Positions 1-20,000 of a stretch of DNA of 20,000 bases are shown here, piece after piece. The stretch's first letter is position 1. Every line of letters starts with the position of its first letter. The stretch is from Neophaeotheca triangularis. Its lineage: Eukaryota. The position numbers and the translations under genes were made by a program. The notes under the pieces are model-generated. The model worked only from the letters and a program-made list of their open reading frames with translations. It searched no databases and had not been told where the DNA came from. The stretch is from contig BAAIJX010000004.1 of assembly GCA_054600435.1 (NCBI GenBank), forward strand, positions 805,159-825,158, in the 5' to 3' direction.

Positions 1-282
1 TTCAACGTCAAAGACTTTGGCGATTCCATCCCAGGCCACGGCGGTATGACGGATCGCATGGACTGCCAGTTCATCATGGGCTTTTTCGCTTTCATGTATT
101 ACCAGTCATTCATCGCTGTCTATAAAGCTAGCGTCGGCAGTGTCATGGAGACTGCAATTATGAGTTTGTCCGCCGAAGAGCAGATGGAGGTTGTCAAGGG
201 TTTAGCCAAACATTTGGTTAATCAGGGGCAGGTGGGCGAGGGGGTTTTGAGTTATTTGGGGGAGCAGATGGTTAGGAAGTAA
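1..282 (+). CDS. CDS1: Phosphatidate cytidylyltransferase (CDP-DAG synthase), 3' end; gene starts upstream of the window
   Basis: Frame 1 is open from base 1: FNVKDFGDSIPGHGGMTDRMDCQFIMGFF, containing the CTP_transf_1 signature KDFGxxIPGHGGxxDRxDC; stop TAA at 280-282. Confidence 0.92.
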   Translation, partial: FNVKDFGDSIPGHGGMTDRMDCQFIMGFFAFMYYQSFIAVYKASVGSVMETAIMSLSAEEQMEVVKGLAKHLVNQGQVGEGVLSYLGEQMVRK

Positions 283-3622: not shown

Positions 3623-5254
3623 TCATTTTCCCTTCTCAAAAACACACTCCCCCTCAAACCACGTCCCAGTAACCCTCGCTTGCTCAAACTCTCCCTTGAC
3701 CAAATCGCCTCCCTCCACCCTTACAAAATTCGCAACCTTCCCAACCTCCAAACTTCCTAACTCACCCTCCCTCCCCACAGCCTCCGCCCCCGCCATTGTC
3801 AGCAACCTCACCACAATCTCACCCCCAGCTCCCCTGTCCCCATGCCCTAGAGTCTCAACCACAGCCTGCAAACACGGCAACAAGTCCGGCGCATCTCCCG
3901 CCCCCCAATCGCTGCCTAGACTCATAGCCGCGCCCGCCTGCTGCATGCTGCCGAAATCCCAATCCATCAATCCCCCACTCGCAGCCGTCACGGGGTGCGC
4001 GAAGAAGAAAGCCGGCGACATTTCCGCCGTCACCCGCAGTTCGCGGAACTGGGCGTAGTCTTCGGCGTGCACGCCGCTGCAGTGGGCGATTTCGTGCCGC
4101 GGCCCCGATGGGTTGGACGCGCGCACCGAGCGCAGCGTTTGCAGTGCGAACCGCGTGGCGCCTTGGCCGGTGCAGTGGATTTTGACCGTGCGGACGTGGG
4201 AGTCGTGGTGCAGCAGGGCGGGAAGCAGGTCCGCGGCCGGCATAAGGAGTTTGCTGTCGTCGACGCAGGTGCCGTGGTCGTTGGTGGCATTCTCTTCGAG
4301 CAGGGGTGCGTGTGTGCTGTAAGGGGGCAGGGGTACGCCGTCGAGGATGATTTTTACAAACCGCGTGTCCACGTGCTGTGACTGGTAGGTGGAGGTAGCG
4401 GTTTCAATGAGTGAGTGTAGGCTTGAGGCGGACTCGTCCCCGATCCACTCCGGGGCATGCACGATGTGTGGGAACATGTGCAGTTTGAGTTGGTTTTGCT
4501 TCTCGAGCGCCCGGAGGCCTTGGAGCATGGGTGTGTTGGCTGAGGCTTCTTGGCAGGATGTCACGCCGGCTGCGTGGAGCTTCTTCTGTGCGGCCAGCAG
4601 TACTCGTTGGATGTGAGGGAGGCCGGGTTGTGGGATGGCGAGCATTGCTTTGGTAAGGCTGTTTTCGGCCATTTCTCCCGTGAGATGGCCGTTGGAGTCT
4701 CGAAAGTAGCGTGTCCCTTGCCCGTCTGGTTCGTCTTCGATGGAGTAGCCTGCTCGCTCTAGGGCAGCCGTGTTCATGAAGGCACTGTGCGCCGCGCCGC
4801 CGCGTATCAAGACGGGCGTATCGGGGTAGTCAACATCCAGGGCTTTGCGGTCGAAGTTGTCGATGAGAAAGTTGTGGGCAATGAGCCAGTCCTCGTGGAT
4901 GTTGGCGAACTTACACCCGCAGCTGCCTTTACGGAGCTCATCTGCGACATTATCGTTGGTGAGACCGTGTCCGGGTAGCTTGATGTGCGAGGTCATGGAT
5001 ATGCCTGACGCGAGCATGTGCACGTGGGCGTCGTGAATGCCCGGCATGATGAAGTGCCCTCCCAGGTCTGAAACAATGAGGCTTTCATCTTTGGCTTTTT
5101 TCCTCATTTCCTCGTTGCTCCCGATTGCGGTGAAGATGCCTTTTGCGGACACAGCGAATGCTTCGGCCCATGGTTGTCTTGGGTTGACGGTGTAGATTCG
5201 TCCGTTGATGTAGGCTGTGCCGTTCTCGCCCGGTCTCGGTCTGGTGGAAGCCAT
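3623..5254 (-). CDS. Metal-dependent amidohydrolase, Amidohydro_3 / YtcJ-like
   Basis: Uninterrupted 543-aa ORF with NGRIYTVN..QPWAEAFAV, PGIHDAHVH (HxH), H.AFMNTAAL, KIILDG, KIHCTG, RHEIAHC, GSDW and GSLEVGKVANFV. Substrate unknown. Confidence 0.88.
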   Translation of the reverse strand: MASTRPRPGENGTAYINGRIYTVNPRQPWAEAFAVSAKGIFTAIGSNEEMRKKAKDESLIVSDLGGHFIMPGIHDAHVHMLASGISMTSHIKLPGHGLTNDNVADELRKGSCGCKFANIHEDWLIAHNFLIDNFDRKALDVDYPDTPVLIRGGAAHSAFMNTAALERAGYSIEDEPDGQGTRYFRDSNGHLTGEMAENSLTKAMLAIPQPGLPHIQRVLLAAQKKLHAAGVTSCQEASANTPMLQGLRALEKQNQLKLHMFPHIVHAPEWIGDESASSLHSLIETATSTYQSQHVDTRFVKIILDGVPLPPYSTHAPLLEENATNDHGTCVDDSKLLMPAADLLPALLHHDSHVRTVKIHCTGQGATRFALQTLRSVRASNPSGPRHEIAHCSGVHAEDYAQFRELRVTAEMSPAFFFAHPVTAASGGLMDWDFGSMQQAGAAMSLGSDWGAGDAPDLLPCLQAVVETLGHGDRGAGGEIVVRLLTMAGAEAVGREGELGSLEVGKVANFVRVEGGDLVKGEFEQARVTGTWFEGECVFEKGK

Positions 5255-5957
5255 GTTGAGTCGGTGGTTCTATCAATTATGCCGAGGCGAGATTGACACC
5301 TTGCTGGAGTGTAACGAAGGCGTTTGGGAGGTTGTCGTTAATCGTCGTCTGTCTAGACTTGATCTACCGAGGAGAGATACCGTGGCCTCTGGCGTGCGGA
5401 GTAGTTATCTAGCCACATACTGTAAATCTGGGCATTCTATCAAGACCCATCTGCCGAGCATCTTCATCGGTGGAGAGCGTCGCGTGCATCGAGGCTTTAG
5501 AAAAAAGGATGAAAGGAGGGTAGTACAGCGCGGGTTGTGAATAGGAAGTACCTATTCGTAGTGAGGAAGCTACATAACCTACAAACTGTTGATGAGCGGG
5601 GAAACCGAACCCTTATAACGGTCCCTTAATTCACCCTTAGAACCCCATCTATCTTGACTATGATGATAGCTCGGTTTTGGCAATTGTATATTGGTATGCT
5701 TCAACTCTATGCAAACAGTGTAGGACTCTACACGAAGTGGAAGATCGACCAATACTATCACTTTTTCCTCTAGAAAGTTTAGTGAAGCCCACGCCCCCAG
5801 ATGTGATTCACTGATTCATTAGCCGCCCAGATGCAAAGCGAACGCTTCGTTTGCAGACTTGCTACATGGCTTCCTGCATGTGCTGCCCCGGAAGAAGCAT
5901 CGATGTCGAAAAGGCTACCCATCTCAACCAACCCTCAATCCTAACCCCCAATCGTCC

Positions 5958-7034
5958 CTAGCAGCACTTGGCAGTAGGGGGCTGCTGTGTACTCGGATCC
6001 GCATCTTTCCTACCCACAAAGGGGCCCCGGTGGACTGATGCGTCTCCTTTGACGGTGAAATGCGGTGCGTAGCGTGTAGCGTTTAAGATCTTCGCGGTAT
6101 TCCCCGATACCGGTATGGGCGTTCCTCGTTGGAAAACAGAGCGGTTGTCGAGAGTGAACGTATCTGCATAGCCTTCGATACCGCCGCCATAAGTAGCCGT
6201 CTGCCCGTAATCTTCCGCACTTTTTTCCAAGCTCAATTTGAAAGCTCGTACTGTGCAGGACTGAAAGGAAAATGCGCCAATCTTCCGCTCCATTTCCGCA
6301 TCGTTGAGACTGATGGGCGTGTTGGAGACAACCCTGTAGTCCATACAGCCGACTGAAGCCAGCATCGCGCCGAATGCCTCCCAGTTCCACGCTCCCGCAA
6401 GACATTCGCCTACCATGACCGGATCCTGAGAGTACTCGGCGGGAATCGGGCGATCGGAAAAGACATCGGAAAAGTAGAGCTCGCCGCCCGGTTTGAGCAC
6501 GCGGAAGATCTCGCCGATTGCCTGCGGTTTGTTGTCCGAAAGATTCAAGACGCAATTCGAGATGACCAGGTCCATGGAGTTATCCTCGATACCAACGCCA
6601 GCGAGATCTTCAATCCGACCAGTTTCGATATCGACATTGGCAACGCCGAATTTCTCTGCGTGCCAGCTCAGGTTTGCCTTTGCAATAGCGGCCTGTTCTT
6701 CGGTAGTGTCGACGCCGACGACCCTTCCCTCACGGCCGACAAGCTGAGACAGAACGAAACAGTCGCGCCCGCTTCCGCATCCAGCATCCAAGACTTTGAC
6801 GCCGTCGAGACATGGCGGAATGGGCGAGCCGCACCCGTAAAAGCGGTTCTTCACTTCCTCGCTCACGTTTTCCAGGGCGCGAGCTACCAGTTTGTCCGAG
6901 GGCTTGGCAGCTGTGCAGGCGGAAGTCCTCAGGTCGCTCGAGCACGACAATGTCTTGCCGTAGTATTCCTGCACCCCTCCGACGTGGTCAGCAGGGGAGT
7001 TGTTGTTACATGCCCCCATGGTGGTATGTAGCAT
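5958..7034 (-). CDS. arsM: Arsenite S-adenosylmethionine methyltransferase (ArsM/AS3MT family)
   Basis: VQEYYGKTL..S.DLRTSAC, RFYGCG, SAM motif VLDAGCGSGRDC, DLVISNCVLNL, FRVLKPGGELYFSDV, GECLAGA. All four canonical As-binding Cys positions are present, plus a C-terminal CC. Intronless; the start may be a nearby downstream ATG. Confidence 0.93.
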   Translation of the reverse strand: MLHTTMGACNNNSPADHVGGVQEYYGKTLSCSSDLRTSACTAAKPSDKLVARALENVSEEVKNRFYGCGSPIPPCLDGVKVLDAGCGSGRDCFVLSQLVGREGRVVGVDTTEEQAAIAKANLSWHAEKFGVANVDIETGRIEDLAGVGIEDNSMDLVISNCVLNLSDNKPQAIGEIFRVLKPGGELYFSDVFSDRPIPAEYSQDPVMVGECLAGAWNWEAFGAMLASVGCMDYRVVSNTPISLNDAEMERKIGAFSFQSCTVRAFKLSLEKSAEDYGQTATYGGGIEGYADTFTLDNRSVFQRGTPIPVSGNTAKILNATRYAPHFTVKGDASVHRGPFVGRKDADPSTQQPPTAKCC

Positions 7035-7477
7035 GAAAGTGTTTCAAGCAATGATATCTGGAAAGCACCGCAGCGACTTCAACCCGCCATCAAGTACTCC
7101 CTCCATTCTCCGGACAGCGGCTGGCTGGGCACCCCACGTCGCCACTCACTGCGCGACGAATTGCCGCGGTGTAGTGACATGCCCCAGCAAGCCCAGGCAA
7201 TAAAATAATACAACACAACGACAACAGCACCTCTGCAGTGACATGATACTGGAAGAACTCTAGCCGCTGTATGAGAGACCACATGGTGACTTGTCGGACG
7301 CCGGGAATTGTGTTAAGCAGCGTTGAATTGTGCTGGAAAGATCCGACCTCTCATTGACCAGCATCATTCATTAATCATCGTCACTTCTATTCGTGCCACT
7401 CCAGCTATCTCTTCTCTCCTAACATCTTCTCTCCTATGTCCTTGTGCTCTGGCTCGTCCAGGTAGCTCTGACTTCCC
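7035..7477. promoter_or_regulatory. Divergent (probably bidirectional) promoter region between arsM and arsS
   Basis: Head-to-head genes about 440 bp apart; AT-rich element AATAAAATAATAA near 7199-7211; pyrimidine-rich tract before the arsS ATG. Inferred from gene geometry. Confidence 0.55.
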
Positions 7478-8970
7478 ATGTCTCGATCCCGACTAAAGGC
7501 TGGCCTATCCGAAGTGCCCAACTTGAAGGGCTTCATGCGACAGAACCCTGAGCGCCTCGAGCGACAAGCTCGGGAGCGACGTCGTGTAGGGCATGAAATC
7601 GCATTCACAGAGGGCATGCTCAGTACTGACGGCTCGAATCAGATGTTCGACGACGCAAGTGCCGCCGTCCCTGCTTTCTCCCAGACCCTCCGCTCCCAAG
7701 GCCTTGGGCCGTTGAGGCGAGGTTTGTCTTGCTATGTCCGCCTGGATCTCACAGCGGCTGATCGATAATCCAGCTACCCCCACTGTCTTGCAAATCAACA
7801 TTGGCAAATTTTGCAACCTGAACTGTCGACACTGTCATGTTGAATCTGGCCCGACCAAGACGCGGGAAAACATGGACCTGAAGGTAGCCAAGCACCAACC
7901 AACCAGACGGACGACCGAGCGATTAACACTTCCCAGACTGTGCAGCGATGCATTGATTTGCTGAAGAGGAGGTTCGGATATAGATCAAACTGGCCGAGGT
8001 CATGCGCTAACTCTTGCGCAGTCCGACTGTCGACACTGTCGACATCACTGGCGGAGCGCCCGAGTTGAACCCTTTCTTTCGTACCTTGGTGACAGAGGTA
8101 TGCTTTATCTTCCTGTCGGTGTATTCTCTCGCGCTAATACTGGACACAGGCCAGGGCTATGGGCAAGAAAGTCATCGACCGATGTAATCTTGCAGTACTC
8201 TTCGAGAAAGGTCAGGAGGATTTGGCTGGCTTCCTCGCCAGTCAAGACGTCAGCGTGGTTGCCTCTTTGCCCTGCTATACCCCAGATAATACCGATAAAC
8301 AGCGTGGAAAACGTGTTTTTGACGACAGGTTGGTCCCTTTTTCCCAGCTTGCCTTCCCAACCTGCTTCACTAATTCTCGATGTTTTAGCATCACCGCGCT
8401 GAAGCTCCTAAACGACCAAGGCTTCGGTCGTCCTACAGCCCCAGGAACAGACTCCAAAAGAGCTCTCGACCTGGTGTACAACCCCATCAACGAATCTCTC
8501 CCTCCCCCGCAAGCTGCACTGGAGGCGCAATACCGGGACCGCTTGTGGGAAGACCACCAGATTACTTTCAACTCTCTCTTCGCCATCACAAACATGCCCA
8601 TCAAGCGGTTCGCCGACGACCTCTTCAACACCGGTCGATACACGGCGTACATGGAAACCCTTGCGCAAGCTTTCAACCCTGGCACCGTGGGAGGTCTCAT
8701 GTGCCGCCAGACTGTCAACGTAGCTTGGGATGGGAAAATATACGATTGCGATTTCAACGCTGCGCTGGAACTCAATACCGCTGGGAGCGAGCCTTCTAGC
8801 AAGCTCGATGTTTGGGCTCTGGGTTGGTATCATCTGCGGACTATATTGGACCCTGGCTAATGCATACAGAAAACCTTTCCGAGTTGGATGGCGGAGCGAT
8901 TCGAACGGATAAGCATTGTTATGGGTGCACGGCTGGTTAGGGATCAAGCTGCGGCGGCGTGTTGGTTTGA
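7478..8970 (+). CDS. arsS: Arsenosugar biosynthesis radical SAM protein (ArsS; rSAM + DUF3641, TIGR04167-like), 8 predicted exons, internal TAG at 8938-8940
   Basis: Hand-spliced exons 7478-7585, 7643-7721, 7774-7883, 7937-7971, 8022-8097, 8150-8328, 8389-8822, 8870-8970 total 1122 nt in frame. Introns are 47-60 nt GT..AG with branch-like motifs. Product has LQINIGKFCNLNCRHCHVESGP (CxxxCxxC), DITGGAPELNP, IDRCNL, VVASLPCY, QRG..VF..SI.AL..LN..G.G, LDLVYNP, LPPPQ..LE, FNSLFAITNMPIKRF, LMCR, WDG.IYDCDFN and HCYGCTAG*GSSCGG. The start codon and first intron (7586-7642) are less certain. Confidence 0.88.
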
Positions 8971-9130
8971 GTAATGCTCGCTTGTTCTGGCTTTGCCGTC
9001 ATTAAGCATGGTCGGCCCTCTGGGAATATATATTAGTCAAGTAACAGGATCACGAAATATGCATGTCAACGATCCAAACGGCGCTCGTACTCTTGTCACA
9101 GTGTGTCACCATCCACTCGTTTGTCACGTC

Positions 9131-9880
9131 CTACGCATTCTGCTCCGACATGACAGTGCTGAGGTAAGCCATGGTCCGAGGAAAAGGCGTTTGCTTGTCT
9201 TCGCGCGTTTTCCACAAGCCATCTAGATCTGCAGGCTCATCGACGTCCGGCAGCGCCTGAGCAACGTCACAAGTCAACCCGGCATCCATCAATCGCTGTA
9301 CCTGCATCTGACCCGTCTGGTCGCTCGACCACGAGATTTGCGAGAAGATGGCTTCTCCGCTGCAGTCTAGCGGAACAGTCAGCAAGACGTATCCGCCGTC
9401 GTACGCAGGAATCATGAAGGCGTTGCCATGGTGTGTTGATGGCCAATGCATGGCGGTCGAGAAGGTCCCGGGCGTCAGATCGAAGCAATCCATGCCGATG
9501 AAAGTGACACTGGGTCTCGAAACAGACACAACCCCCGCCGTAGACTGAGTAGGACTACGGTGAGAATTCTGGATGAAATCAAGGGCGCCGCTTAGACGAC
9601 CGCCGAGATCAGGAGTCTCGGATTGGCACTGCAGCTCCCATGAATCGTTGAGAGACTCGCTTTTGAGCAAGGCTTGGAGTTCCGGCCTAGCAGTCGCGGG
9701 CGTGTAGAACAGAATGCGGCGACAGGAGGGAAGCGTGCCCGTGAGGTGTAGGAGATCAGTCAGGGCTGCTTTTGCAAATGTGCATGCCCCGTCGGGGCCT
9801 AGACGGGGGTTGAGGCGAGTCTTGCTGCGACCTGGTGTTGGTGCCCTCGCTAGCAGGCCAAGATAGTTAGTGCAACTCAT
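9131..9880 (-). CDS. TIGR04282/DUF2064 family transferase (rSAM/selenodomain-associated transferase 1; arsenosugar-associated, CofC-like fold)
   Basis: ARAPTPGRSKTRL..LG..GA, Q...DLGGRL, FIGMDC..L, PAYDGGYVLL, IFSQISWSS and LPDVDEPADL match the recalled family consensus (KAPxPGxVKTRL, DLGERM, IGSDCP, GPAxDGGYYL, WST, DVDxxEDL). Intronless. Confidence 0.88.
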   Translation of the reverse strand: MSCTNYLGLLARAPTPGRSKTRLNPRLGPDGACTFAKAALTDLLHLTGTLPSCRRILFYTPATARPELQALLKSESLNDSWELQCQSETPDLGGRLSGALDFIQNSHRSPTQSTAGVVSVSRPSVTFIGMDCFDLTPGTFSTAMHWPSTHHGNAFMIPAYDGGYVLLTVPLDCSGEAIFSQISWSSDQTGQMQVQRLMDAGLTCDVAQALPDVDEPADLDGLWKTREDKQTPFPRTMAYLSTVMSEQNA

Positions 9881-10108
9881 GCTGGTAACATGCGTAGGAG
9901 CTCTCGGTATTAAGAGGCAATGCTTATGGAGAGGGGGAGAAGTAAATCTATCTATCTACCGCTGAGGACCCGCATGTCTCTTCCAGAGGTCCGTGCGCGC
10001 CAGGTAAAGCGAGGACTTTCCTCCGTTCAGCTTTCGTCCACCCTCCTGTCCATTATGTGCCGCATTCGGCTTCGTCTAATCTAGCGGAATAAATACACTT
10101 GGACGGAA
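9881..10108. promoter_or_regulatory. Short divergent promoter region between the TIGR04282 and TIGR04283 genes
   Basis: Only 228 bp separate the two head-to-head start codons. Confidence 0.55.
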
Positions 10109-11002
10109 ATGTTTGGTGTAGTCGTACTCTTAAGCGTGCTGCTTGCCGTCGCCATCCTCTACCTTGGTCGGAAGAGTAGCGAACGTTCTCAAAATGTCAG
10201 TACACTGAGCAAATCGCCCGATTCCAAAGCCTCTAGGTCCGTCGCGGTGATTGTGCCAACGCTCCAGGAGACTTCAGTACTTCCCAAGACCATCAATCGA
10301 CTATTTTCTCGAGCCAGCACTTCGAGCAAGGACGATAGCCCGCATGTAGCCGCCTCAATCACCGTCGTCGTGGTTGACGCCTCGCCTACCTCTGCTACCA
10401 GGGAGTGTCTCGACCCTCTAATGACTACTCAACCCTCGTTGCACCTAGTACATTATCCTGGAAAACCTTCACGAGGTGCGCAGATGAACTTCGGAGCCGC
10501 GCACGCTATCAAGCTGGCACCCGAAACCTCGACGTTCGTCTTCCTTCATGCCGACACTCACCTGCCGTTTGCGTGGAACGATGCCATCTGCACTCTTTTG
10601 TCTTCCACGCAAGTCCCGACTCTAGGATGCTTCAAGCTCTCCCTTTCGCCGCCTATCTCACTAGGTTTACAGACGATGCTGTGGTGCGCGAATCAGCGTG
10701 CGAAATGGGGCGGGTTGCCCTATGGGGATCAGTGCTATTTCCTATCTCGAGCTACCTACGATACCGTTCATGGATTCCCGTCGGTGCCTATCATGGAAGA
10801 TCTAGGTATGCTGCGGCGAATCTCACGGATAGGGCAAGTAGTTGTTCTCGACGCAGTAGTGGAGACCAATTCACGTCGGTGGAATAGAAAGGGCGTGCTG
10901 TGGAACACGGTACTCAACCAGATACTTGTCGCTGCCTGGCTGTGCGGTGCCTCGCATGAGAGTATCTATCGATGGTATTATGGTCGAGATGTCTCGGGCT
11001 AG
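10109..11002 (+). CDS. TIGR04283 family GT2 glycosyltransferase (rSAM/selenodomain-associated transferase 2; arsenosugar-associated) with N-terminal membrane anchor
   Basis: VIVPTLQE, VVVVD, RGAQMNFGA, FLHADT.LP, GLPYGDQ..F, GFP.VPIMED, TNSRRW...GVL..T.LN and Y.WYY match the family pattern; hydrophobic N-terminus FGVVVLLSVLLAVAILYL. Intronless. Confidence 0.9.
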   Translation: MFGVVVLLSVLLAVAILYLGRKSSERSQNVSTLSKSPDSKASRSVAVIVPTLQETSVLPKTINRLFSRASTSSKDDSPHVAASITVVVVDASPTSATRECLDPLMTTQPSLHLVHYPGKPSRGAQMNFGAAHAIKLAPETSTFVFLHADTHLPFAWNDAICTLLSSTQVPTLGCFKLSLSPPISLGLQTMLWCANQRAKWGGLPYGDQCYFLSRATYDTVHGFPSVPIMEDLGMLRRISRIGQVVVLDAVVETNSRRWNRKGVLWNTVLNQILVAAWLCGASHESIYRWYYGRDVSG

Positions 11003-11029
11003 TGTACGTTAGTACTACCGACTACTACC

Positions 11030-11688
11030 TATACGGGAATCTCACTCCTAGCTTATATAGACTTGTCATTAATAAAGCCTTATCAAATTAAAATCAATTC
11101 GCCTACTGTTTCGACTTGAACTTAGTGTTAAATCTAGACTAATTCAATTAAACTATAGACCTTAAAAACATTAGGGTCCTATAACACGTGAATTCCTAGG
11201 TTTAGTAGAAGGAATTCAACCCTAACTTCTATCCTTAAAAATATTAGACCCTAATGTCACCTAAATTCCTAGTATAACTACTCTAATAGTATAACTCTGT
11301 TTTACTAGCAAAATTTAGAAAATTAGTTTTTATAGAAGCTAGAGAGTTTTTAAAGACTCCTAGGCAGTTTTCCTACTAGATCTATAAAGCTCTAGCTTCC
11401 TTAAAAAACTATATAGAAGCTCTAGAAAACTCTATTACTTATAGGAAAACTAAGTATAGATTCTCCTAGATAGTATATTATTTATCTAGAACCTTAAGAA
11501 GTTTTCTAGGATTAACTTATAGTTTTCTTAGGAGAGAGTAGGTCTAAGGAAGCTAAGAAACTAAAAATTAAGTTAATAGAAACTCTAGAGCTTTCTAGAA
11601 AACTATAAGTACTTATAGAACTAAGGTACTTCTAAACTCCTAATAAATATACCCTCTAGAGCTATATAGGTCTAAGATAAGTCTAAAT
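11030..11688. repeat. AT-rich, heavily RIP-mutated repeat relic (left part, interrupted by the LTR element)
   Basis: Abrupt GC drop just after the GT2 stop; strong TpA excess and CpA/TpG depletion; no ORFs. The left boundary is approximate. Confidence 0.75.
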
Positions 11689-12107
11689 TGTTACGGCCAA
11701 GCTAAGCAGAGCTGGAATTCCTAGTCGGAGCCAGGGTCTAACCCTAAGGCTTACCGGACACGTGATCTCAGAACTAGCTAAGACGTTCGCTTAGACTTTA
11801 ACTAAGCATGCTCGCTTAGACTTAGACTGAGTCTAAGCCAGGACACTTAGGATCAGTCTAATCCTAAGCACGACGGATTAGTCAAGAACTGATCTAACAC
11901 GAATCTCCTATATATATAGCTAGCGATATTTCCTAGGTAGAGATTTATGTTTAACTCATGTTACAATCTTACTGAAAGGTCTATAGCGACACTTCACGTA
12001 TCTTTGAAATCCTTACGATAAAGGAAACACCCTTGCTAGCCTTCTTCGACATCTCTCCTCTTCCGCTACGAGCTCTACCCGTGAGACTACCTTGTAGGAT
12101 CGCAACA
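11689..12107 (+). repeat. 5' LTR
   Basis: TGTTAC...GCAACA; 13 mismatches to the 3' LTR by manual comparison. Confidence 0.95.
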
Positions 12108-12147
12108 CTTTAAACACCCTCTAGGAAAGAGAGATTAATAGGCAAGT

Positions 12148-14367
12148 ATGTCCCTATCCGATAACCGAGACGCAAGCGTCGCTAGCACTTAACGAGGAGT
12201 ATTAACTATGGTTACTAGTAAGGTTGCTAAACCGGACTACTTCTATAGCGAACGTAACAAGCTAGACGACTAGGTCAACTAGATGATGATGTTCTTCCTT
12301 ATAGAAAGCGTTAGTAAGTAGAAGCAACCTCTTACTACTGCTTCGTTCCTTCGAGGAGAAGCTTAACACTAGATCCGCCCTAAGCTTACGGATTTCCTTA
12401 TAGAACGAATCGACCCCGAAGGACTGTTCTCGAACTAGAAGTCTTTCGTCAAAGTTATCCGCAACGTCTATAGATTGAGCAACGATCGACAAGTTGCTAT
12501 CCGAATGATTTAGCACCTTACGTAGAAAACGTCTGCCTCTTAGTACACTGCCAAATTTCAGGAGCACTTAGCCAAGACTGACTAGGACGACAACGCTCTT
12601 ATGACCATGTACTACCGAGGACTTAAAGATAACGTGAAGGACGAACTTATACGCCACGGAGGCGATCAGTCAACTCTCCCCGGTATGATCAAATTAGCGA
12701 TTAAAGTTAATGACGCTCTCTACGAACGGTTTATAGAAAAACGCCACACTAGACAATTTCGCGGACGAACTAGCTATGCTACCGGCAGCCGGCCTGTCGG
12801 TTAGCAACGTCGCGATCCTAATGCGATAGAACTCGACTCTACGCAATAGCGTCCTAGGAAGGGCAGGGATGGAGGACGGGGCAAACAGAACGCCCTAGGC
12901 AAGAAACGGAACGGACCGGAATGCTATAACTACTACAAGATAGGGCACTATGTACGAGACTGCCGTGGGAAACAGATGCGCCCACGATAGGAGGTTAATG
13001 CGATTTTGACCCGACAGGATAACGACTCTCCTACCGATAAGAGCCGCGGAGCTTACGACATTACCGGAACCTACGAAGAACCGGAACACGACGAACTTTA
13101 CTAGAGGTTTTGCGAAAGGGATTATTGCTTAGTGCATAAAAGTCAAGGACTAGTAACTAACGGTATATCTACTAAACCTCGGAAGGAAGTGAACGTCATC
13201 GAACGAGTTACCCTAAAGTCCGGAACGGACGCACTAATCGAGCAATACTAGAAGCTTAGGGAGTTTCACGACGACTTAGTTAGTCATAAGGAATAGACTA
13301 AAGAGCACTTCAACCTTATGATCTAAGTAGCCGATTAGATAGCAGATCTGAACGACAGGATTAAGGCCATAACAGAGGAAGAATCTAAGTAACTACGCAA
13401 GCCTTAGAAGGAACTCAACATAATGTCAAGACGCTAACCATTATAGCAGTTAAGGGACGACGGCAACGCAGCCCGAGGAAGGTCCCCACCTCTATTTGTA
13501 TAGGAGGACGACAAACTGCAAGAAAACCAAGTACTATTACCGATGATGGCACTACTAACACCCGACTTAGACAACGAAGAAATATCTTAGACACTAGAAC
13601 TCACTGCGATCGTACTAACACCGGAGATTAGCCCCTTAAGACTATCGATGCCCCTAGAGATTCTAGAATCGTAAGAAGATACGACAGTGACGGATTCCGA
13701 AGACGACTCCGAATACGACTATACCGACGATAACGAACCAGACGATAACGACGTAGCAGAGTTCATTATGCACGGACTAAACCTAATCAAGAAGATAGTC
13801 ATTCACATTGCACGATCGTACGAAGAAGTGTTCCTAAGGATCTAAGGCAAGCGACGCTTAGAACCTAATCAATTCGAAGCCATGCTTATGCGATTACGAG
13901 CAATGTTCTAGGACTACCGAAAGGTCGCCGTCGAGTATGACGCTGCCACCTTTGTCTAGGACAGGCTACTAATGGGAAGCACTTTTCACGGAGAAAACGG
14001 CTACATTACGCTAGACGGGATACGAATCCCACATTCTATAAGACAACGAGTCAAAATAGTCAAGAATCGTTACAGAGAATTCTAGCTCATTTAGGAGCAA
14101 TGGAGAGAAGAAGAAATCACGCTACAAGAAATGAAGAAGCAAGTACAGGATTCCTTAGACTAATAGACTATAGTACCGCGCGACAAGTTCTTACTACTAG
14201 TCGACCGAAAGATGATCCTCGGACATGTTAAAGTAACCACACGAGGACCTATCACCGTACACGCAATCTAAGGAAAAGTCACGATCAGACCTCGGGACGG
14301 ACCCCTTTACTAGGAAGTCTCTCTCGAAACAGCGGATTTATCTACCTACTTCTCAAAAAACGAATAG
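12148..14367 (+). pseudogene. gag: gag pseudogene (long; many RIP stops)
   Basis: ATG at 12148; KVAKPDYFY.ERNKLDD, MYYRGLKDNVKDEL; degenerate CCHC knuckle ECYNYYKIGHYVRDC at ~12919-12963; frame ends with TCA AAA AAC GAA TAG. Confidence 0.8.
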
Positions 14368-17300
14368 GACCTGTCGCTAAGAGCGAGCGTTAGGAACTGA
14401 ACAACACAAATGCTTAACACGAAATAGCATTAGGAACGGTCTTCCGAACAACATGTACTGTCGACGGATACGAAACCCTCGCCATAATAGATTCCGGAGC
14501 CAGCGGAAACTTTATCTCGGAAACTTTCGTACGTTAGCATGGGCTAGCTACCTAGAAGAAAACAGATGGCGGGTACGAACTAATGGCCGTAGACGGCTTA
14601 TCACTACCCGACGTGGATAGCGAAACAGTACCGCTACTACTTGTCTTCTAAAAGCATCACGAGCGAATTGTCCTAGACGTTATGCCTATGGCTAGACATA
14701 ACGTCGTTCTAGGCACTCCTTGGTTAGAACGACACAATCCTATAGTGGATTAGAGAAAACGAGTACTTACATTCGACAGGTGTAGTTGCGTCACTACAAC
14801 CTACCCTGCGCGCCGGCAGCGATCGACGGCAGATAAGAGAAGGTAGATTAACGAGACATATCGCTAATCGACCACGATACTAATACGAATTGGATCGGAC
14901 TCTATAGGTGCCGAACTAGCCTAAACGGACTAACAAGTAAGAGTTAAGGAAGGAAGTCACGTACCTTTAGATATCCCTAGAGAATTCAGAAAATGGAAGC
15001 GCCTTTTCTAGGAAGAGGAAGGAGCAGCCGCTCTACCTAGACATTAACTATAGGACTACCGAATCGACATTCAGCCCGGTGCGAAGATACTATAGGGGCC
15101 ACTTTACGCGCTATCCGAAAAAGAGCTCGAAGAGTAACGACGATGGCTAGATGAAAAAATGAAGAAAGGATAGATTCGACCCTCTACTTCATTAGCCGCT
15201 TCACCACCGTTTTTCGTTCCGAAGAAAGGAGGAAAACTACGAATGGTTATCGATTTCAGACGACTTAATGCGATCACCACCAAAAACCGTTATCCACTAC
15301 CTAACATCGACGAAATAAGGGATCGACTCACCGGTTCACACTAGTTCACTAAGATCGATCTTCGAGATGCATTCTATTCAGTTAGAATAGCAAGGGGGGA
15401 AGAGTAGAAAACAGCTTTTCGAACGCGCTACGGACTTTACGAATTCCAGGTCATGCCTATAGGACTCACGAATGCCCTAGCAACCTATTAACAACTCGTT
15501 AACGACATCCTACGAGACCTACTCGATATCACTGTCATCGCTTACATCGACGACATATTGGTCTTCACGAAAGGATCACGAGAACAACATACTAAGGACG
15601 TACACGCAGTATTCGAACGACTCGACAAAGTAGACTTCAGAACAGCACTAGAGAAATGCGAGTTCTATAAGAAGGAAGTCGACTTTCTAGGTTTTGTGAT
15701 TAGCACTACCGGGATCCGAATAGACCCGAAGAAAACTTAATCGATCGAGGAATGGCTAACACCTAAGTTAGTCAAGGACATCTAAGCATTCCTCGGATTA
15801 GCTAACTACAATCGGAAATTCGTGAAGGATTACTTAAGGCTCGCTACGCCTCTAACTAACCTTACGAAAAAGGACACACCATTCGTATAGGGAAAGATTT
15901 AACAACAATCCTTCGACAAGCTTAAGGAGTCATGCACGACTGCTCCTACGCTAAGGATGTTTGACCCTAAGAAACCAATTCAAATCGAAACCGATGCCTC
16001 CGACAGAGCAATAGGAGCTTGCCTCACGTAGGAGGTTGAAAGTAAACGACACCCTATCGCTTACTTCTTAAGGAAGATGTCACTAGCGGAATAGAACTAC
16101 GAGATCTACGACAAAGAACTGCTCGCAATCGTTACAGCATTGCGATACTAGAGAGTGTACTGTAAAGGAGTAACCGGACTAACTATTTACTCGGATCACA
16201 AGAACCTGCAATACTTCATAACAACTAAGGAATTGTCACGCCGACAATGCAGATAGTTAGAGCTACTCGGACAATACAAGTTCGACATAGTCTACACTCC
16301 CGGAAAAGACAATAGGCGCGCCGACGCGCTAAGTAGAAGAAGCGACTACATAGAAGGACACCTTCTATAGCAACACCGTATACTGAAGGTTAATAAGGAC
16401 GGAAGCCTAAGCGCTAACCCCTAGGAATTTAACTTAGTACTACGAGTACTTAGGGATAACACCGAGGAATTCCCTGTCGAACATAGGAAGTTCAGGGTTC
16501 TAAACGAAAGGGAACGCTAGTGCATCTAGGACTACCACGATGGACCTACTAACGGACATCTAGGAATCGCTAGAACAGTAGAACACATTAGACGCAACTT
16601 CGTGTTCCCCGGAATGAGACAGAAGGTCTTAGAGTACATCAAGAAATGTACGAGCTGCTAACGAAACAAAGCTTCGAGACACGCTAAATATGGGAACCTA
16701 CAATTCTAGGAGCCACCGGATCTACCATGGAACGAGGTCACAATGGATTTTATCGTCAAGTTACTAAGATCTAAGGACCCGTCAACAAGCAAGAACTACG
16801 ATTCAATTCTAGTCATAGTCGATAGACTCACGAAGTATTCACATTTCGTTCCCTACAACGAGACAATCACTGTAGAAGAACTCGGATACCTTGTTCTCGA
16901 CAGATTAGTACGATACCACGGCATTCTAACGGTTCTAATTACGGATAGAGACAAGCTCTTCACATCTAACTACTAGAAGACCTTGATATTAGCGATAGGA
17001 GTGAAACACAAGCTCTTAACAGCATTTCACCCCGAAACCGATAGATAGACAGAACGCTCAAACTAATCCCTCGAGACGTACTTAAGACATTACGTTAACT
17101 ACGCTTAGGACAATTAGGTAGCGCTCTTACCTATAGTACAGCTCGCACTCAACAACAATGCCTTAGAAACGACAGGCTTAACTCCGTTCTATGCAAATTT
17201 CGGAAAGGATCTAAACACATTTATAGAACTAAAGCTAGGACCGCTCGTAGAAAGAGCCCTACAAACTTCTTCGTAGCTGTAGGAGGCACATAAATAGGCG

Positions 17301-17807
17301 AAAGACAAAATTACATAGTCGTAATAGCGACTCGAGTCATAAAGACATAAGGACTCCAAAACGGCACCTTAGCTTAAGAAGGGGGATAAGGTATACCTAC
17401 TCACGAAAAACCTAAAGACAAGGAGACGAACACGAAAACTAGACTATGTTAAAGTCGGACCGTTTCTAGTTAAAGAACAAAGAGGAAAAGTCAACTACCT
17501 CCTCTAACTCCTAAAAGACGCTAGAATCCACCTAGTCTTCCATATATCCTTGCTCGAACTAGTAGACCCCGAAACACTAATCCAAGACACCTTTCACTAC
17601 GATCCACTAGAGGAAGAAGCCGAGTACGAGGTCGAAAAGATTCTAGACAAGGACGGTTAGAACTACCTCGTGAAATGGAAAGGTTACCACGCAAGCGAAA
17701 ACACTTAGGAACCTAAGGACAACTTACTTAACTGCTAGAAGGCCCTGTAATAATATCATCAGGACCGAAATCCTAAAGCTCGGAAGGAAGATCTAAGCCG
17801 TCGATAG
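14355..17807 (+). pseudogene. pol: pol pseudogene: protease, RT, RNase H, integrase, chromodomain
   Basis: All domains share one frame: AIIDSGASGNF (14481), [22 protein letters not shown] (15543), IETDASD.AIGA, H..GH.G...C..C, MDFIVKL (16743), and chromodomain EYEVEKIL...YLVKWKGY..SENT*EP (17622). Stops mostly fall at Gln/Trp positions. Confidence 0.92.
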
Positions 17808-17856
17808 CACTCTAGTCCTACGTCGACATCTCTAGAATACTAACAAAGCCTAGACG

Positions 17857-18345
17857 CTACGCAACCTTAACCCTAGTGTTAACCGGACCCAAGAGATCTT
17901 CCTCTAACCGATCCACTTGCTCTAAATCCTCTAACTCTCTAGACACCGCGGTTTCCGTGCGACCCTTAGCATGACGAAGCTGTTTTCGCAACCGCAACTT
18001 TTTCGAACGACGCTCGTGCAGTTTTTGTAAAAGCTCGAGCTCCTCCTCCTTACACTCCTCCAACTGCCGTTGCAGTTTGTTGCGTGAATCTCTCCATTTT
18101 TCCCACTTAGGACGACTAAGCTTTGCGTCACACTTAGTATACCCTTTGCGTATATATTCCGAACACCGACTAGATCGAGCACTAATCATACATCGTACTG
18201 GTTCGGCCGAAGGCGATTTCCTCGTAGATCGACAGGCTAAACAGGGTGCCATATTGGTTGTTCTAGACTTCTCGATTTCGGCCGAGAGATTAAGACGTTG
18301 TTGTTTACGGGACAGGGTAGAAGACATCGCGAAACTTAATGACAA
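17857..18345 (-). CDS. Antisense accessory ORF of the retrotransposon: Zn2Cys6-like Cys motif plus coiled coil
   Basis: 162 open codons between pol and the PPT; PCLAC...RC...RCSE(Y)IRKGYTKC followed by a charged heptad-like helix. Expression unknown. Confidence 0.5.
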   Translation of the reverse strand: MSLSFAMSSTLSRKQQRLNLSAEIEKSRTTNMAPCLACRSTRKSPSAEPVRCMISARSSRCSEYIRKGYTKCDAKLSRPKWEKWRDSRNKLQRQLEECKEEELELLQKLHERRSKKLRLRKQLRHAKGRTETAVSRELEDLEQVDRLEEDLLGPVNTRVKVA

Positions 18346-18411
18346 AACGATGTGGGGAATGACGGAACTTTATCAGGCTTCGAGGACGAAGCTAGGCTAA
18401 AAGGGGGATAG

Positions 18412-18830
18412 TGTTACTGCTAAGCTAAGCAGAGCTAGAATTCCTAGTCGGAGCCAGGGTCTAACCCTAAGGCTTGCCGGACACGTGATCTTAGAACTAG
18501 CTAAGACGTTCGCTTAGACTTTAACTAAGTATGCTCGCTTAGACTTAGACTAAGTCTAAGCCAGGACACTTAGGATCAGTCTGATCCTAAGCACGACGGA
18601 TTAGTCAAGAACTGATCTAACACGAATCTCCTATGTATATAGCTAGCGATATTTCCTAGGTAGAGATTTGTGTTCAACTCATGTTACAATCTTACTGAAA
18701 GGTCTATAGCGACACTTCACGTATCTTTGAAATCCTTACGACAAAGGAAACACCCTTGCTAGCCTTCTTCGACATCTCTCCTCTTCCGCTACGAGCTCTA
18801 CCCGTGAGACTACCTTGTAGGATCGTAACA
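18412..18830 (+). repeat. 3' LTR
   Basis: TGTTAC...GTAACA; preceded by the PPT and followed by the TSD TAAAT. Confidence 0.95.
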
Positions 18831-18835
18831 TAAAT

Positions 18836-20000
18836 ATACTTTAAAGTAAAGTATCTAGGGAATATATAGCTTAATAGTAAACCCTTAGGTATCTACTACC
18901 CTACTCGGTAGTAGAACTAACTTATACCGGCAAAAAACGGTCTATTTTACTAGCAAATTTAAATTCTTGTTTTTTTAGTAGTAGAACCGGGAATTTCGAT
19001 ATTTTAAGGTAAGGAATCGATTCCTAAGGGCTTAAATACCCTAGAAAACATATTAAAACATTAGATTTACTTAAGTCTCTTAATAGGGTAGGGTAAAGGC
19101 CCTAGACCTTAGGGTATAATCCTAATTTCTAAAAAGGGAAATTTTGTAAAATCTAAAGTTATAGTCTTCTTCTTTAGGGTCTATATAGCTACTTTATAGC
19201 TTAAAAGTATAGGAATACCTAGTGTAGTAATTAAATAAGGGTGCTTTTAGATTAGAGTTAGAGATATTAAGGAACTTAGGCCTTATAAAATATAGGAGGG
19301 GTTTATACTTAATAGGAACTTTACCCTAGCCTTTTTTAGGGTTTAGGAAGTTATATACTAAGCCTATATAAGTATTAAAGGGTGTACTAAGGTTATTAAA
19401 GAATTAAATCTAGTTTAAAGTAAAGAATCTTAAGGATAACTAAAGTATTATAGGATTAACATCTAGTATATATAAGTAATAGTATTCTTAGGGTTTATAT
19501 AGATCTTTAGCGATTAATAGAGTATATTAAAAGTCTCTTTATAGTAGTAGAGGCCCTTAGTAGTACTAGTAAGACTAAATTAGAATAAGGTCTCTCTTAC
19601 TAGTAAAGTACTTTAAGGACTATCTCTAGACTAGCGCTATTATATTAGACTACTACTATATTATAATAGTATTTAAAAGGTCTTTAGGCTCCTAAGTAAC
19701 TTAGCTTAAAGCTCTAGTAGTTTATTATAAGTTAAAGGGAAGTTAAGAAGTATAGTAAATAAGGTAAAGTAGAAATAATAGGGAGTAATATATTATTATA
19801 AAGTAAATAAGATTAGGATATATATAAGGTAATATAAATATACTATTCTCTTTAGGTATACTTAAGCTCTCTTTTAGCTAAAGGATTAGTCTATAAGTAG
19901 TAGTAATGTATATAGATAAGGATCCTTAGCCTAAAACTAAAATTTAGTATAGAGATAGTAGTAATAGGGGTATAACTATAAAATCTTTAGGGTTAGCTCT
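18836..20000. repeat. AT-rich, heavily RIP-mutated repeat relic (continues past the window)
   Basis: Very low GC, extreme TpA excess, CpA/TpG nearly absent, no ORFs; original element not identifiable. Confidence 0.8.

Follow-up and report, generated by a model that had tools for sequence, protein, structure and literature searches.

A candidate arsenosugar-type gene cluster in the fungus Neophaeotheca triangularis, with an arsS allele probably disabled by a premature stop codon

We analyzed a 20,000-nucleotide stretch of DNA from the black-yeast-like fungus Neophaeotheca triangularis (Dothideomycetes; contig BAAIJX010000004.1, positions 805,159 to 825,158; hereafter the window). Positions 5958-11002 of the window hold four adjoining genes, recognized from a list of stop-to-stop open reading frames (ORFs) and scans with hidden Markov model (HMM) profiles. 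These are an arsM-like gene for an As(III) methyltransferase that uses S-adenosylmethionine (SAM), arsS for a radical-SAM/DUF3641 enzyme, a gene for a GT-A-like transferase of the DUF2064/TIGR04282 family, and a gene for a TIGR04283 transferase of glycosyltransferase family 2 (GT2). Within 5 kb, they are arranged in two pairs, each transcribed divergently. The arsM gene (ORF 5958..7043, minus strand) and arsS (7478..8970, plus strand, eight exons) diverge from the intergenic region 7044..7477. The DUF2064 gene (coding sequence 9131..9880 within ORF 9131..9955, minus strand, 249 amino acids in a single exon) converges on the 3' end of arsS and diverges across 9881..10108 from the GT2 gene (coding sequence 10109..11002 within ORF 10085..11002, plus strand, 297 amino acids). 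A shared promoter is presumed for arsM and arsS between 7044 and 7477, and another for DUF2064 and GT2 between 9881 and 10108. The four genes and their identities had been proposed in an earlier note made from the letters alone, and HMM matches, PDB relatives and alignments support them. We read the locus, with moderate confidence, as a fungal cluster that joins arsM to a bacterial-type trio in an arsenosugar-type pathway, of which the second step, that of ArsS, is probably disabled in this strain.

The arsM ORF matches the NCBIfam arsenite methyltransferase profile PRK11873 (E 1.2e-49, 169.3 bits) and contains a class I SAM methyltransferase domain (Pfam Methyltransf_31, PF13847; E 3e-31, 108.5 bits, cut-off 27). 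It also matches eukaryotic and algal arsenite methyltransferase structures in the PDB, 5evj (E 7.7e-88) and 4fr0 (E 9e-80), and its four cysteine motifs, TSAC, GCG, SNCV and GECL, are identical in the 5evj alignment. The four conserved cysteines of ArsM bind As(III), according to excerpts of a recent preprint (bioRxiv 10.1101/2024.02.01.577332). Because the first in-frame ATG (7034-7032) is ATA in a sister sample, sequencing run X2, which has a variant at 7032, translation most likely starts at the second methionine (ATG 7019-7017).

Reading of the sequence together with homologue alignment gave eight exons for arsS (7478-7585, 7643-7721, 7774-7883, 7937-7971, 8022-8097, 8150-8328, 8389-8822 and 8870-8970), separated by seven GT..AG introns of 57, 52, 53, 50, 52, 60 and 47 nt with branch sites resembling CTAAC, CTAAT or CTGAC. 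The resulting model of 373 codons is collinear with fungal and bacterial ArsS, without notable internal gaps; it is 59-60% identical to the full-length fungal proteins of Coccidioides immitis, Exobasidium rhododendri and Lithohypha guttulata and 54-55% identical to three bacterial ArsS proteins. The CX3CX2C radical SAM motif (FCNLNCRHCH) lies in exon 3, aligned with that of the homologues, and the ORF that carries it (7716-7964) matches TIGR04167 (E 9.8e-12, 44.7 bits). The largest read-through ORF, at 8138-8860, matches both TIGR04167 (E 1e-68, 231.8 bits) and DUF3641 (PF12345; E 4.2e-37, 127.6 bits, cut-off 24.9). Such a gene had been expected to elude automatic annotation, and the public N. 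triangularis record indeed has arsS as a 213-residue fragment running into the last intron. An N-terminal extension of ca. 60-105 residues is present in fungal ArsS proteins (P0005, P0011 and P0012 of our protein collection), is not found in bacterial ones, and is shorter in the window (7478-7721). In the full-length fungal homologues, of which there are three, this extension has a high content of Arg, Ser and Thr, and it could be an organelle-targeting peptide.

Transcription and splicing were assessed with RNA contigs from two marine metatranscriptome runs (X3 and X5) matched to 5900-11100; five of the seven matched X3 contigs are at least 99% alike to the window. Three introns are removed in these contigs: 7586-7642 by the joint 7585>7643 in both X3 and X5 (34 and 24 letters on the shorter side), 7722-7773 by the joint 7719>7772 (cut +2) in X3 (40 letters), and 8098-8149 by the joint 8095>8148 (cut +2) in X3 (23 letters). 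Joints with fewer than 30 letters on the shorter side are weaker, which applies to two of these four values. The other four introns are supported by homology and by their GT..AG ends. The arsS transcript reaches upstream to at least 7257, as an X5 contig spans 7257-7585 and is then spliced to 7643; arsM is covered by RNA contigs at 5934-6733. In nature, a near-identical organism thus transcribes and splices arsS.

The last arsS exon reads DKHCYGCTAG, stop, GSSCGGVLV, stop in one-letter amino acid code. The first of these stops is an in-frame TAG at 8938-8940 (plus strand, codon 364), and the frame beyond it stays open to a TGA at 8968-8970. The TAG takes off the final 10 residues of ArsS, including the third conserved cysteine of a C-terminal motif, and leaves 363. 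Of the 120 best ArsS homologues, 110 have this motif, HC[FY]GCTAGxGSSCGG, in full, and the window allele does not; the other 10 comprise mis-modelled fungal proteins and sequences that deviate in other ways, and no homologue among the 120 terminates inside the motif. Where the motif is complete, position x is Ala (93 proteins), Ser (9), Asn (3), Arg (2), Cys (2) or Thr (1). For ArsL, a related enzyme, a C-terminal cysteine motif is proposed as the As(III) site in excerpts of the preprint cited above (bioRxiv 10.1101/2024.02.01.577332).

The stop codon was traced through two samples. Sequencing run X1, the likely source of this DNA, is identical to the window over all 5201 bases of 5900-11100 at a word depth of 129.5 and has A at 8939, so the A is not a slip of the deposited assembly. 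The sister sample X2, which bears the same organism label and is ca. 1% diverged, has C at this site, giving TCG, serine and a complete motif. A third sample under this organism label, run X8, contains almost none of the sampled words, which does not amount to evidence that the cluster is absent from it. Serine also stands at this position in the closest fungal homologues, those of Lecanosticta, Elsinoe and Aspergillus sp. HF37. Besides the TAG/TCG site, arsS of X1 and X2 differs by six synonymous and two missense changes. The few missense differences, together with the open frame past the TAG, indicate that arsS was under purifying selection until recently and that the nonsense change is young; being a C-to-A transversion, it does not resemble repeat-induced point mutation (RIP). 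The window allele is probably a recent natural knock-out, and because the TAG removes the last conserved cysteine, the ArsS step, and hence the pathway, is probably disabled in this strain. The arsenoriboside cluster of the earlier note holds as to gene set and homology; the note missed the TAG, and what is sequenced here is probably not an intact biosynthetic cluster.

The two transferases were characterized by profile and by structure. The DUF2064 ORF matches TIGR04282 (E 2.7e-31, 108.8 bits, profile positions 3-189 of 189) and PF09837 (E 1e-12, 48.4 bits, cut-off 25.8), and its protein has every invariant column of 20 fungal-type homologues. The sole PDB relative is 3cgx, a structural-genomics entry described as a "putative nucleotide-diphospho-sugar transferase", and bacterial DUF2064 members gave weak CofC matches in a Pfam scan. 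The GT2 ORF matches TIGR04283 (E 3e-50, 170.9 bits, profile positions 2-221 of 221) and keeps the eight invariant columns of its family, including F153, H155, D157, G214, D215, Q216 and E238. Its AlphaFold model (mean predicted local distance difference test score 89.4) shows a GT-A fold preceded by a hydrophobic helix at ORF residues 6-36. This N-terminal helix is not in the bacterial homologues, and its presence in the model suggests a membrane location. Foldseek searches with the model returned generic GT-A/GT2 matches only (best PDB template-modelling score ca. 0.5-0.56), which indicate neither donor nor acceptor. The protein collection holds the window's own DUF2064 protein (P0241) and, in contrast, no 100% match to the window GT2, which may be uncalled or differently called in public annotation.

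Relatives of the cluster proteins occur in scattered fungi. Named ArsS matches come from Lecanosticta acicola, Aspergillus sp. HF37, Elsinoe australis, Coccidioides immitis, A. tanneri, Monosporascus ibericus, Exobasidium rhododendri and Lithohypha guttulata. GT2 has 19 fungal-type relatives at 42-59% identity (most bacterial matches are at or below 36%, range 30-38%), and DUF2064 has 35 at 42-64%, including one from Lipomyces kononenkoae (bacterial matches, 27-34%). Across the cluster, the fungal-type proteins are 30-55% identical to bacterial ones. In a FastTree phylogeny of 120 ArsS rows, the window protein, the eight named fungal rows and seven unnamed rows form a clade of 16 (Shimodaira-Hasegawa-like support 99) apart from the 104 others; this unrooted tree names no donor and fits one origin of the fungal genes. 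The 20 fungal-type rows of the GT2 tree need two changes rather than one, so that a single clade is neither shown nor excluded.

Linkage of all four genes is seen at the DNA level in two near-duplicate metagenome contigs, L001 (part of a contig of 72.7 kb) and L002, each carrying the set within ca. 5 kb. L001 encodes ArsM at 6303-7337 (minus strand), DUF2064 at 7778-8410 (plus), ArsS at 8645-9863 (minus) and GT2 at 10632-11378 (plus), with proteins 47-61% identical to their window counterparts. Its ArsS gene is intron-bearing, because it is matched by four collinear high-scoring segment pairs. Relative to the window, ArsS and DUF2064 have swapped positions, and both loci consist of two divergent pairs. 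For the named fungi, synteny is read from locus tags and equal source-contig sizes. In Aspergillus sp. HF37 (PHISP_05987/05988) and in Monosporascus ibericus (DL764_010572/010573) the tags are consecutive, and in A. tanneri (EYZ11_007783/007791) they are eight apart. Eleven equal source-contig sizes recur over the ArsS, GT2 and DUF2064 searches, for example 9908 (ArsS P0016, GT2 P0125, DUF2064 P0250) and 193224 (ArsS and GT2 of L. acicola); this is suggestive of linked genes, sameness of the contigs not being proved.

To compare the fungal cluster with bacterial loci, we counted neighbors of anchor genes; with one or two tblastn queries per family, all counts are lower bounds. Among 80 ArsS-anchored loci, with up to 10 kb on each side, GT2 was found in 41, DUF2064 in 30, ArsM in 22 and all three in 5. 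When the 50 loci with at least 5 kb on both sides were considered, the numbers were 30, 24, 15 and 3, and 11 had none of the three. From the other direction, 78 DUF2064-anchored bacterial metagenome loci included GT2 in 60, ArsS in 32, ArsM in 9 and all four genes in 7. The co-occurrence of TIGR04282 and TIGR04283 with this radical SAM family in bacteria, which the earlier note had stated, is thus evident in these loci. A Pfam scan of 150 of the 200 ORFs from 20 of them (16 loci completely, L144 in part) revealed the tight operon order arsS-GT2-DUF2064, expanded in L133 to arsS-arsM-GT2-DUF2064. GT2 and DUF2064 are fused (PF00535 + PF09837) in 6 of the 120 GT2 matches listed, which links both transferases to a common process. 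Among the 150 scanned ORFs, neither a nucleosidase nor a phosphorylase nor a CDP-alcohol transferase turns up repeatedly beside the trio. Immediately upstream of arsS, two loci (L115:7821-9950 and L133:2534-3949) encode a Pyr_redox_2 flavoprotein disulfide reductase, which in L115 carries a fused VTT/DedA domain. This protein might serve as a redox partner; the fungal cluster has no counterpart of it. The fungal cluster thus corresponds to a set of bacterial genes that in a minority of cases comprises arsM.

The flanks of the cluster are eukaryotic. Domain scans of the window found the C-terminus of a CDP-diacylglycerol synthase-like (CTP_transf_1, CDS1-like) protein at 1-279 (plus strand, 5.7 kb from the cluster), a RING-finger protein at 1286-2878 and, between the RING gene and arsM, an Amidohydro_3 protein at 3623-5269 (minus strand; E 5.3e-44). 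The last has weak NCBIfam matches to guanine deaminase and 5'-deoxyadenosine deaminase. We did not accept it as a fifth cluster gene, one that might deaminate the adenosyl product, as it is absent near the L001/L002 cluster and has a relative ca. 5.4 kb from arsS in 3 of the 80 bacterial loci. On the other side, RIP-like dinucleotide indices are confined to 11001-20000 (TpA/ApT 1.15-2.07; (CpA+TpG)/(ApC+GpT) 0.09-0.67), and the cluster DNA itself is not RIP-like; the AT-rich stretch starts directly after the GT2 stop codon. It contains an RVT_1 fragment (15492-15737), and no chromodomain or integrase was found in 22 ORF fragments scanned from 11000-20000. A retroelement remnant is therefore supported here, and the chromovirus label that the earlier note had given it is not. 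A separately assembled 13.3-kb contig of run X1 spans the cluster and, judging by the coordinates of the record, ca. 7.9 kb past 5900 toward the CDS1-like/RING side; it stops ca. 200 bases past 11100, within the RIP-like repeat. Residence of the genes in a fungus, claimed before from introns and neighbors, is upheld by the spliced RNA joints, the RIP-like repeat and the CDS1-like and RING genes.

L001 and L002 have flanking genes of their own. A CDP-alcohol phosphatidyltransferase (PF01066, E 6.8e-10) is encoded ca. 1.5 kb from arsM (L001:4193-4804, plus strand; L002:6434-7042), and in L001 two transporter genes follow GT2, one for a member of the major facilitator superfamily (MFS) at 11466-12491 and one for an ABC transporter of the ABCD type at 13093-15672. 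No homologue of the phosphatidyltransferase was found in the window. The named Atlas clusters closest to it are bacterial, a match (score 0.92) that serves only as a lead, and the bacterial locus L016 has a 29%-identical relative ca. 0.8 kb from a GT2-DUF2064 pair.

On these grounds, we propose the following pathway. ArsM would methylate As(III) to dimethylarsenite, as shown for its homologues. ArsS would then cleave SAM at its CX3CX2C [4Fe-4S] site and join the 5'-deoxyadenosyl radical to dimethylarsenite, giving 5'-deoxy-5'-dimethylarsinoyl-adenosine (abbreviated DDMAA), as shown for bacterial ArsS; by analogy with ArsM and ArsL, its C-terminal cysteine motif would bind the trivalent arsenic. 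Once adenine has been lost, DUF2064 might act as a nucleotidyltransferase-like activator that converts arsenoribose-1-phosphate into a nucleoside diphosphate (NDP)-sugar, from which the inverting GT2 might pass the arsenoribosyl group to an acceptor, yielding a beta-riboside in the form of an arsenosugar or of a lipid-linked compound. GT2 enzymes invert anomeric configuration, and arsenosugars have a beta-riboside linkage; inversion by GT2 would therefore produce the linkage found in arsenosugars. The expected product is thus an arsenoriboside.

A more specific version of the last steps is that fungi with this cluster make membrane-bound or lipid-linked arsenoribosides by a so far undescribed route, which we regard as improbable. 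In this scheme, the housekeeping methylthioadenosine phosphorylase would convert DDMAA to 5-dimethylarsinoyl-ribose-1-phosphate, DUF2064 would activate the latter to an NDP-sugar, and the membrane-anchored, inverting GT2 would transfer the beta-riboside to glycerol or a glycerolipid. Hints in this direction are the GT2 helix, the CDP-alcohol phosphatidyltransferase, MFS and ABCD-type transporter genes that flank the cluster in L001, and the CDS1-like gene 5.7 kb away in the window. Such a route would yield arsenosugar (phospho)lipids, possibly the long-sought precursors of fungal arsenobetaine.

Several observations weigh against assigning the cluster to an arsenosugar-type pathway with a disabled second step. 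No arsenosugar has been reported from this organism. The profiles named in the earlier note were all matched (TIGR04167/PF12345, TIGR04282/PF09837, TIGR04283 and arsenite methyltransferase), at scores short of the NCBIfam curated cut-offs: arsM reaches 169.3 bits against 263 for PRK11873 and fits the arsenosugar-type NF038099 (103.2 bits, cut-off 400) worse than this general profile; arsS reaches 231.8 against 300 for TIGR04167, with single-exon ORFs scored rather than the spliced model; DUF2064 has 108.8 bits, below the 134 of TIGR04282; and GT2, with 170.9, is just below the 182 of TIGR04283. Because these cut-offs were set for prokaryotic proteins, we read the four proteins as diverged family members rather than strict equivalogs. 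In bacteria, 58 of the 80 ArsS-anchored loci have no nearby ArsM-like gene, and ArsS is within reach in just 32 of the 78 DUF2064-anchored loci (20 of the 39 that are at least 8 kb long). Two Cyanobium loci, from relatives of a proven arsenosugar producer, have no GT2 or DUF2064 within reach; in one (L129) ArsM lies 140 bp from ArsS, and in the other (L158) no partner lies beside arsS. The GT2/DUF2064 pair is therefore not needed beside arsS for arsenosugar synthesis, and the putative arsenosugar role of TIGR04282 and TIGR04283 is drawn from co-location and database names. The RNA runs X3 and X5 come from one study and are not independent; their contigs leave GT2, DUF2064 and 8858-9031, which includes the TAG site, uncovered, from which nothing follows as to absence. 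Finally, we infer the loss of activity from the missing last 10 residues.

Three alternatives to this reading were considered. Bacterial contamination or an assembly chimera might be suspected because all four families are mainly bacterial and contamination of fungal assemblies is a known problem, as noted in excerpts of a published study (PMC12628603). However, arsS has seven spliceosomal introns, three of them confirmed by RNA; a second sample of the organism carries the cluster at ca. 1% divergence; the flanks are eukaryotic; and the fungal proteins, which share only 30-55% identity with bacterial ones, group in clades of their own. We assign this explanation, including the chimera that the earlier note had allowed for, a negligible probability and, so far as the sequence goes, regard it as refuted. 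Most likely, the set was acquired from bacteria, gained its introns since, and was kept in scattered fungi. A separate question is whether the product of the ArsS-like enzyme and the two transferases is an arsenosugar at all, or instead, for example, a riboside containing a different metalloid (selenium, for instance) or a non-metalloid glycoconjugate, with the methyltransferase serving as a general metalloid methylase. The bacterial loci that have arsS without arsM, and the frequent occurrence of the GT2-DUF2064 pair without arsS, would fit this idea, and the transferase names are annotation only. Moreover, the family was first noted for selenocysteine members, as recorded by the name "rSAM_SeCys" of TIGR04167 and by a table entry (PMC9312934). 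Against this, the sole ArsS-family enzyme presented as characterized in the available excerpts acts on dimethylarsenite (PMC13598754; bioRxiv 10.64898/2026.04.29.721666), arsM belongs to the cluster both in the window and in L001/L002, and ArsM retains each of its four motifs with As(III)-binding cysteines. A product of another kind is thus unlikely.

The third alternative accepts the pathway and concerns the stop codon: the cluster may work in this strain despite the TAG, either because the 363-residue ArsS is still active or because the stop is partly read through. As a matter of general chemistry, dimethylarsenite requires one thiol ligand only, and the truncated protein keeps two of the three C-terminal cysteines (HCYGC); the frame beyond the TAG is also open and conserved. 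An open frame is equally expected for a very recent mutation, however, and the GSSC part is present in all 110 motif-bearing proteins among the 120 homologues, none of which ends here. There is no sign of readthrough, the RNA and protein data not reaching the TAG site. We therefore consider a working ArsS in this strain unlikely and favor an arsenosugar-type cluster whose ArsS step is probably lost here.

If this is correct, the conserved, transcribed and intron-bearing arsM-arsS-GT2-DUF2064 cluster provides concrete candidate genes for the complex organoarsenicals of fungi. According to excerpts of a 2026 study of Hebeloma, how fungi arrive at arsenobetaine and arsenocholine "remains under investigation", with arsenosugars as possible intermediates (PMC13314834); a study of Agaricus says of the biosynthesis of arsenobetaine that it "remains unknown" (PMC9609160). 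Because one sample of the organism has TAG and the other TCG, the two amount to a knock-out pair made by nature, in which the hypothesis can be tested directly. In addition, the cluster could be the first functional handle on two transferase families that are widespread in bacteria and uncharacterized, and it exemplifies the domestication in fungi of a metabolic set of several bacterial genes. Consistent with the earlier note, which knew of no such cluster, we found no paper on arsS in fungi or on a fungal arsenosugar cluster in the full-text literature, from which subscription journals are largely missing. UniRef already names proteins of Elsinoe australis and Monosporascus ibericus "Arsenosugar biosynthesis radical SAM..."; the novelty is one of literature and of the cluster, not of gene calls.

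The closest parallels come from bacteria. The arsenosugar pathway of the cyanobacterium Synechocystis pairs ArsM with ArsS. As described in excerpts on the enzyme, ArsS adds a 5'-deoxyadenosyl radical to dimethylarsenite to give DDMAA, from which adenine is later removed before the ribose is derivatized (PMC13598754; bioRxiv 10.64898/2026.04.29.721666). The fungal cluster shares with this pathway an ArsM with four cysteine motifs, an ArsS with CX3CX2C, DUF3641 and a C-terminal cysteine motif, and the adjacency of arsM and arsS; it differs in that its genes are intron-bearing and arranged in divergent pairs, its ArsS has an N-terminal extension, two transferases are added, and the window allele is truncated. 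The bacterial arsS-TIGR04283-TIGR04282 operon, whose transferases appear in JGI annotation as "rSAM/selenodomain-associated transferase 2 and 1", has the same three families in the same tight linkage. In contrast to that operon, the fungal genes are rearranged in an order that varies between the window and L001, do not form an operon, and encode a GT2 with an added helix. Among eukaryotes, excerpts of a survey of algal gene neighborhoods describe other arsenic clusters and not arsS (PMC7826186). Horizontally acquired arsM genes have been reported from fungi (PMC5552862, PMC5398495), and they resemble the present case as bacterial-type arsenic genes resident in fungi. As far as excerpts of those reports go, they concern arsM/AS3MT alone, whereas the cluster described here is a multi-gene set with a radical SAM enzyme.

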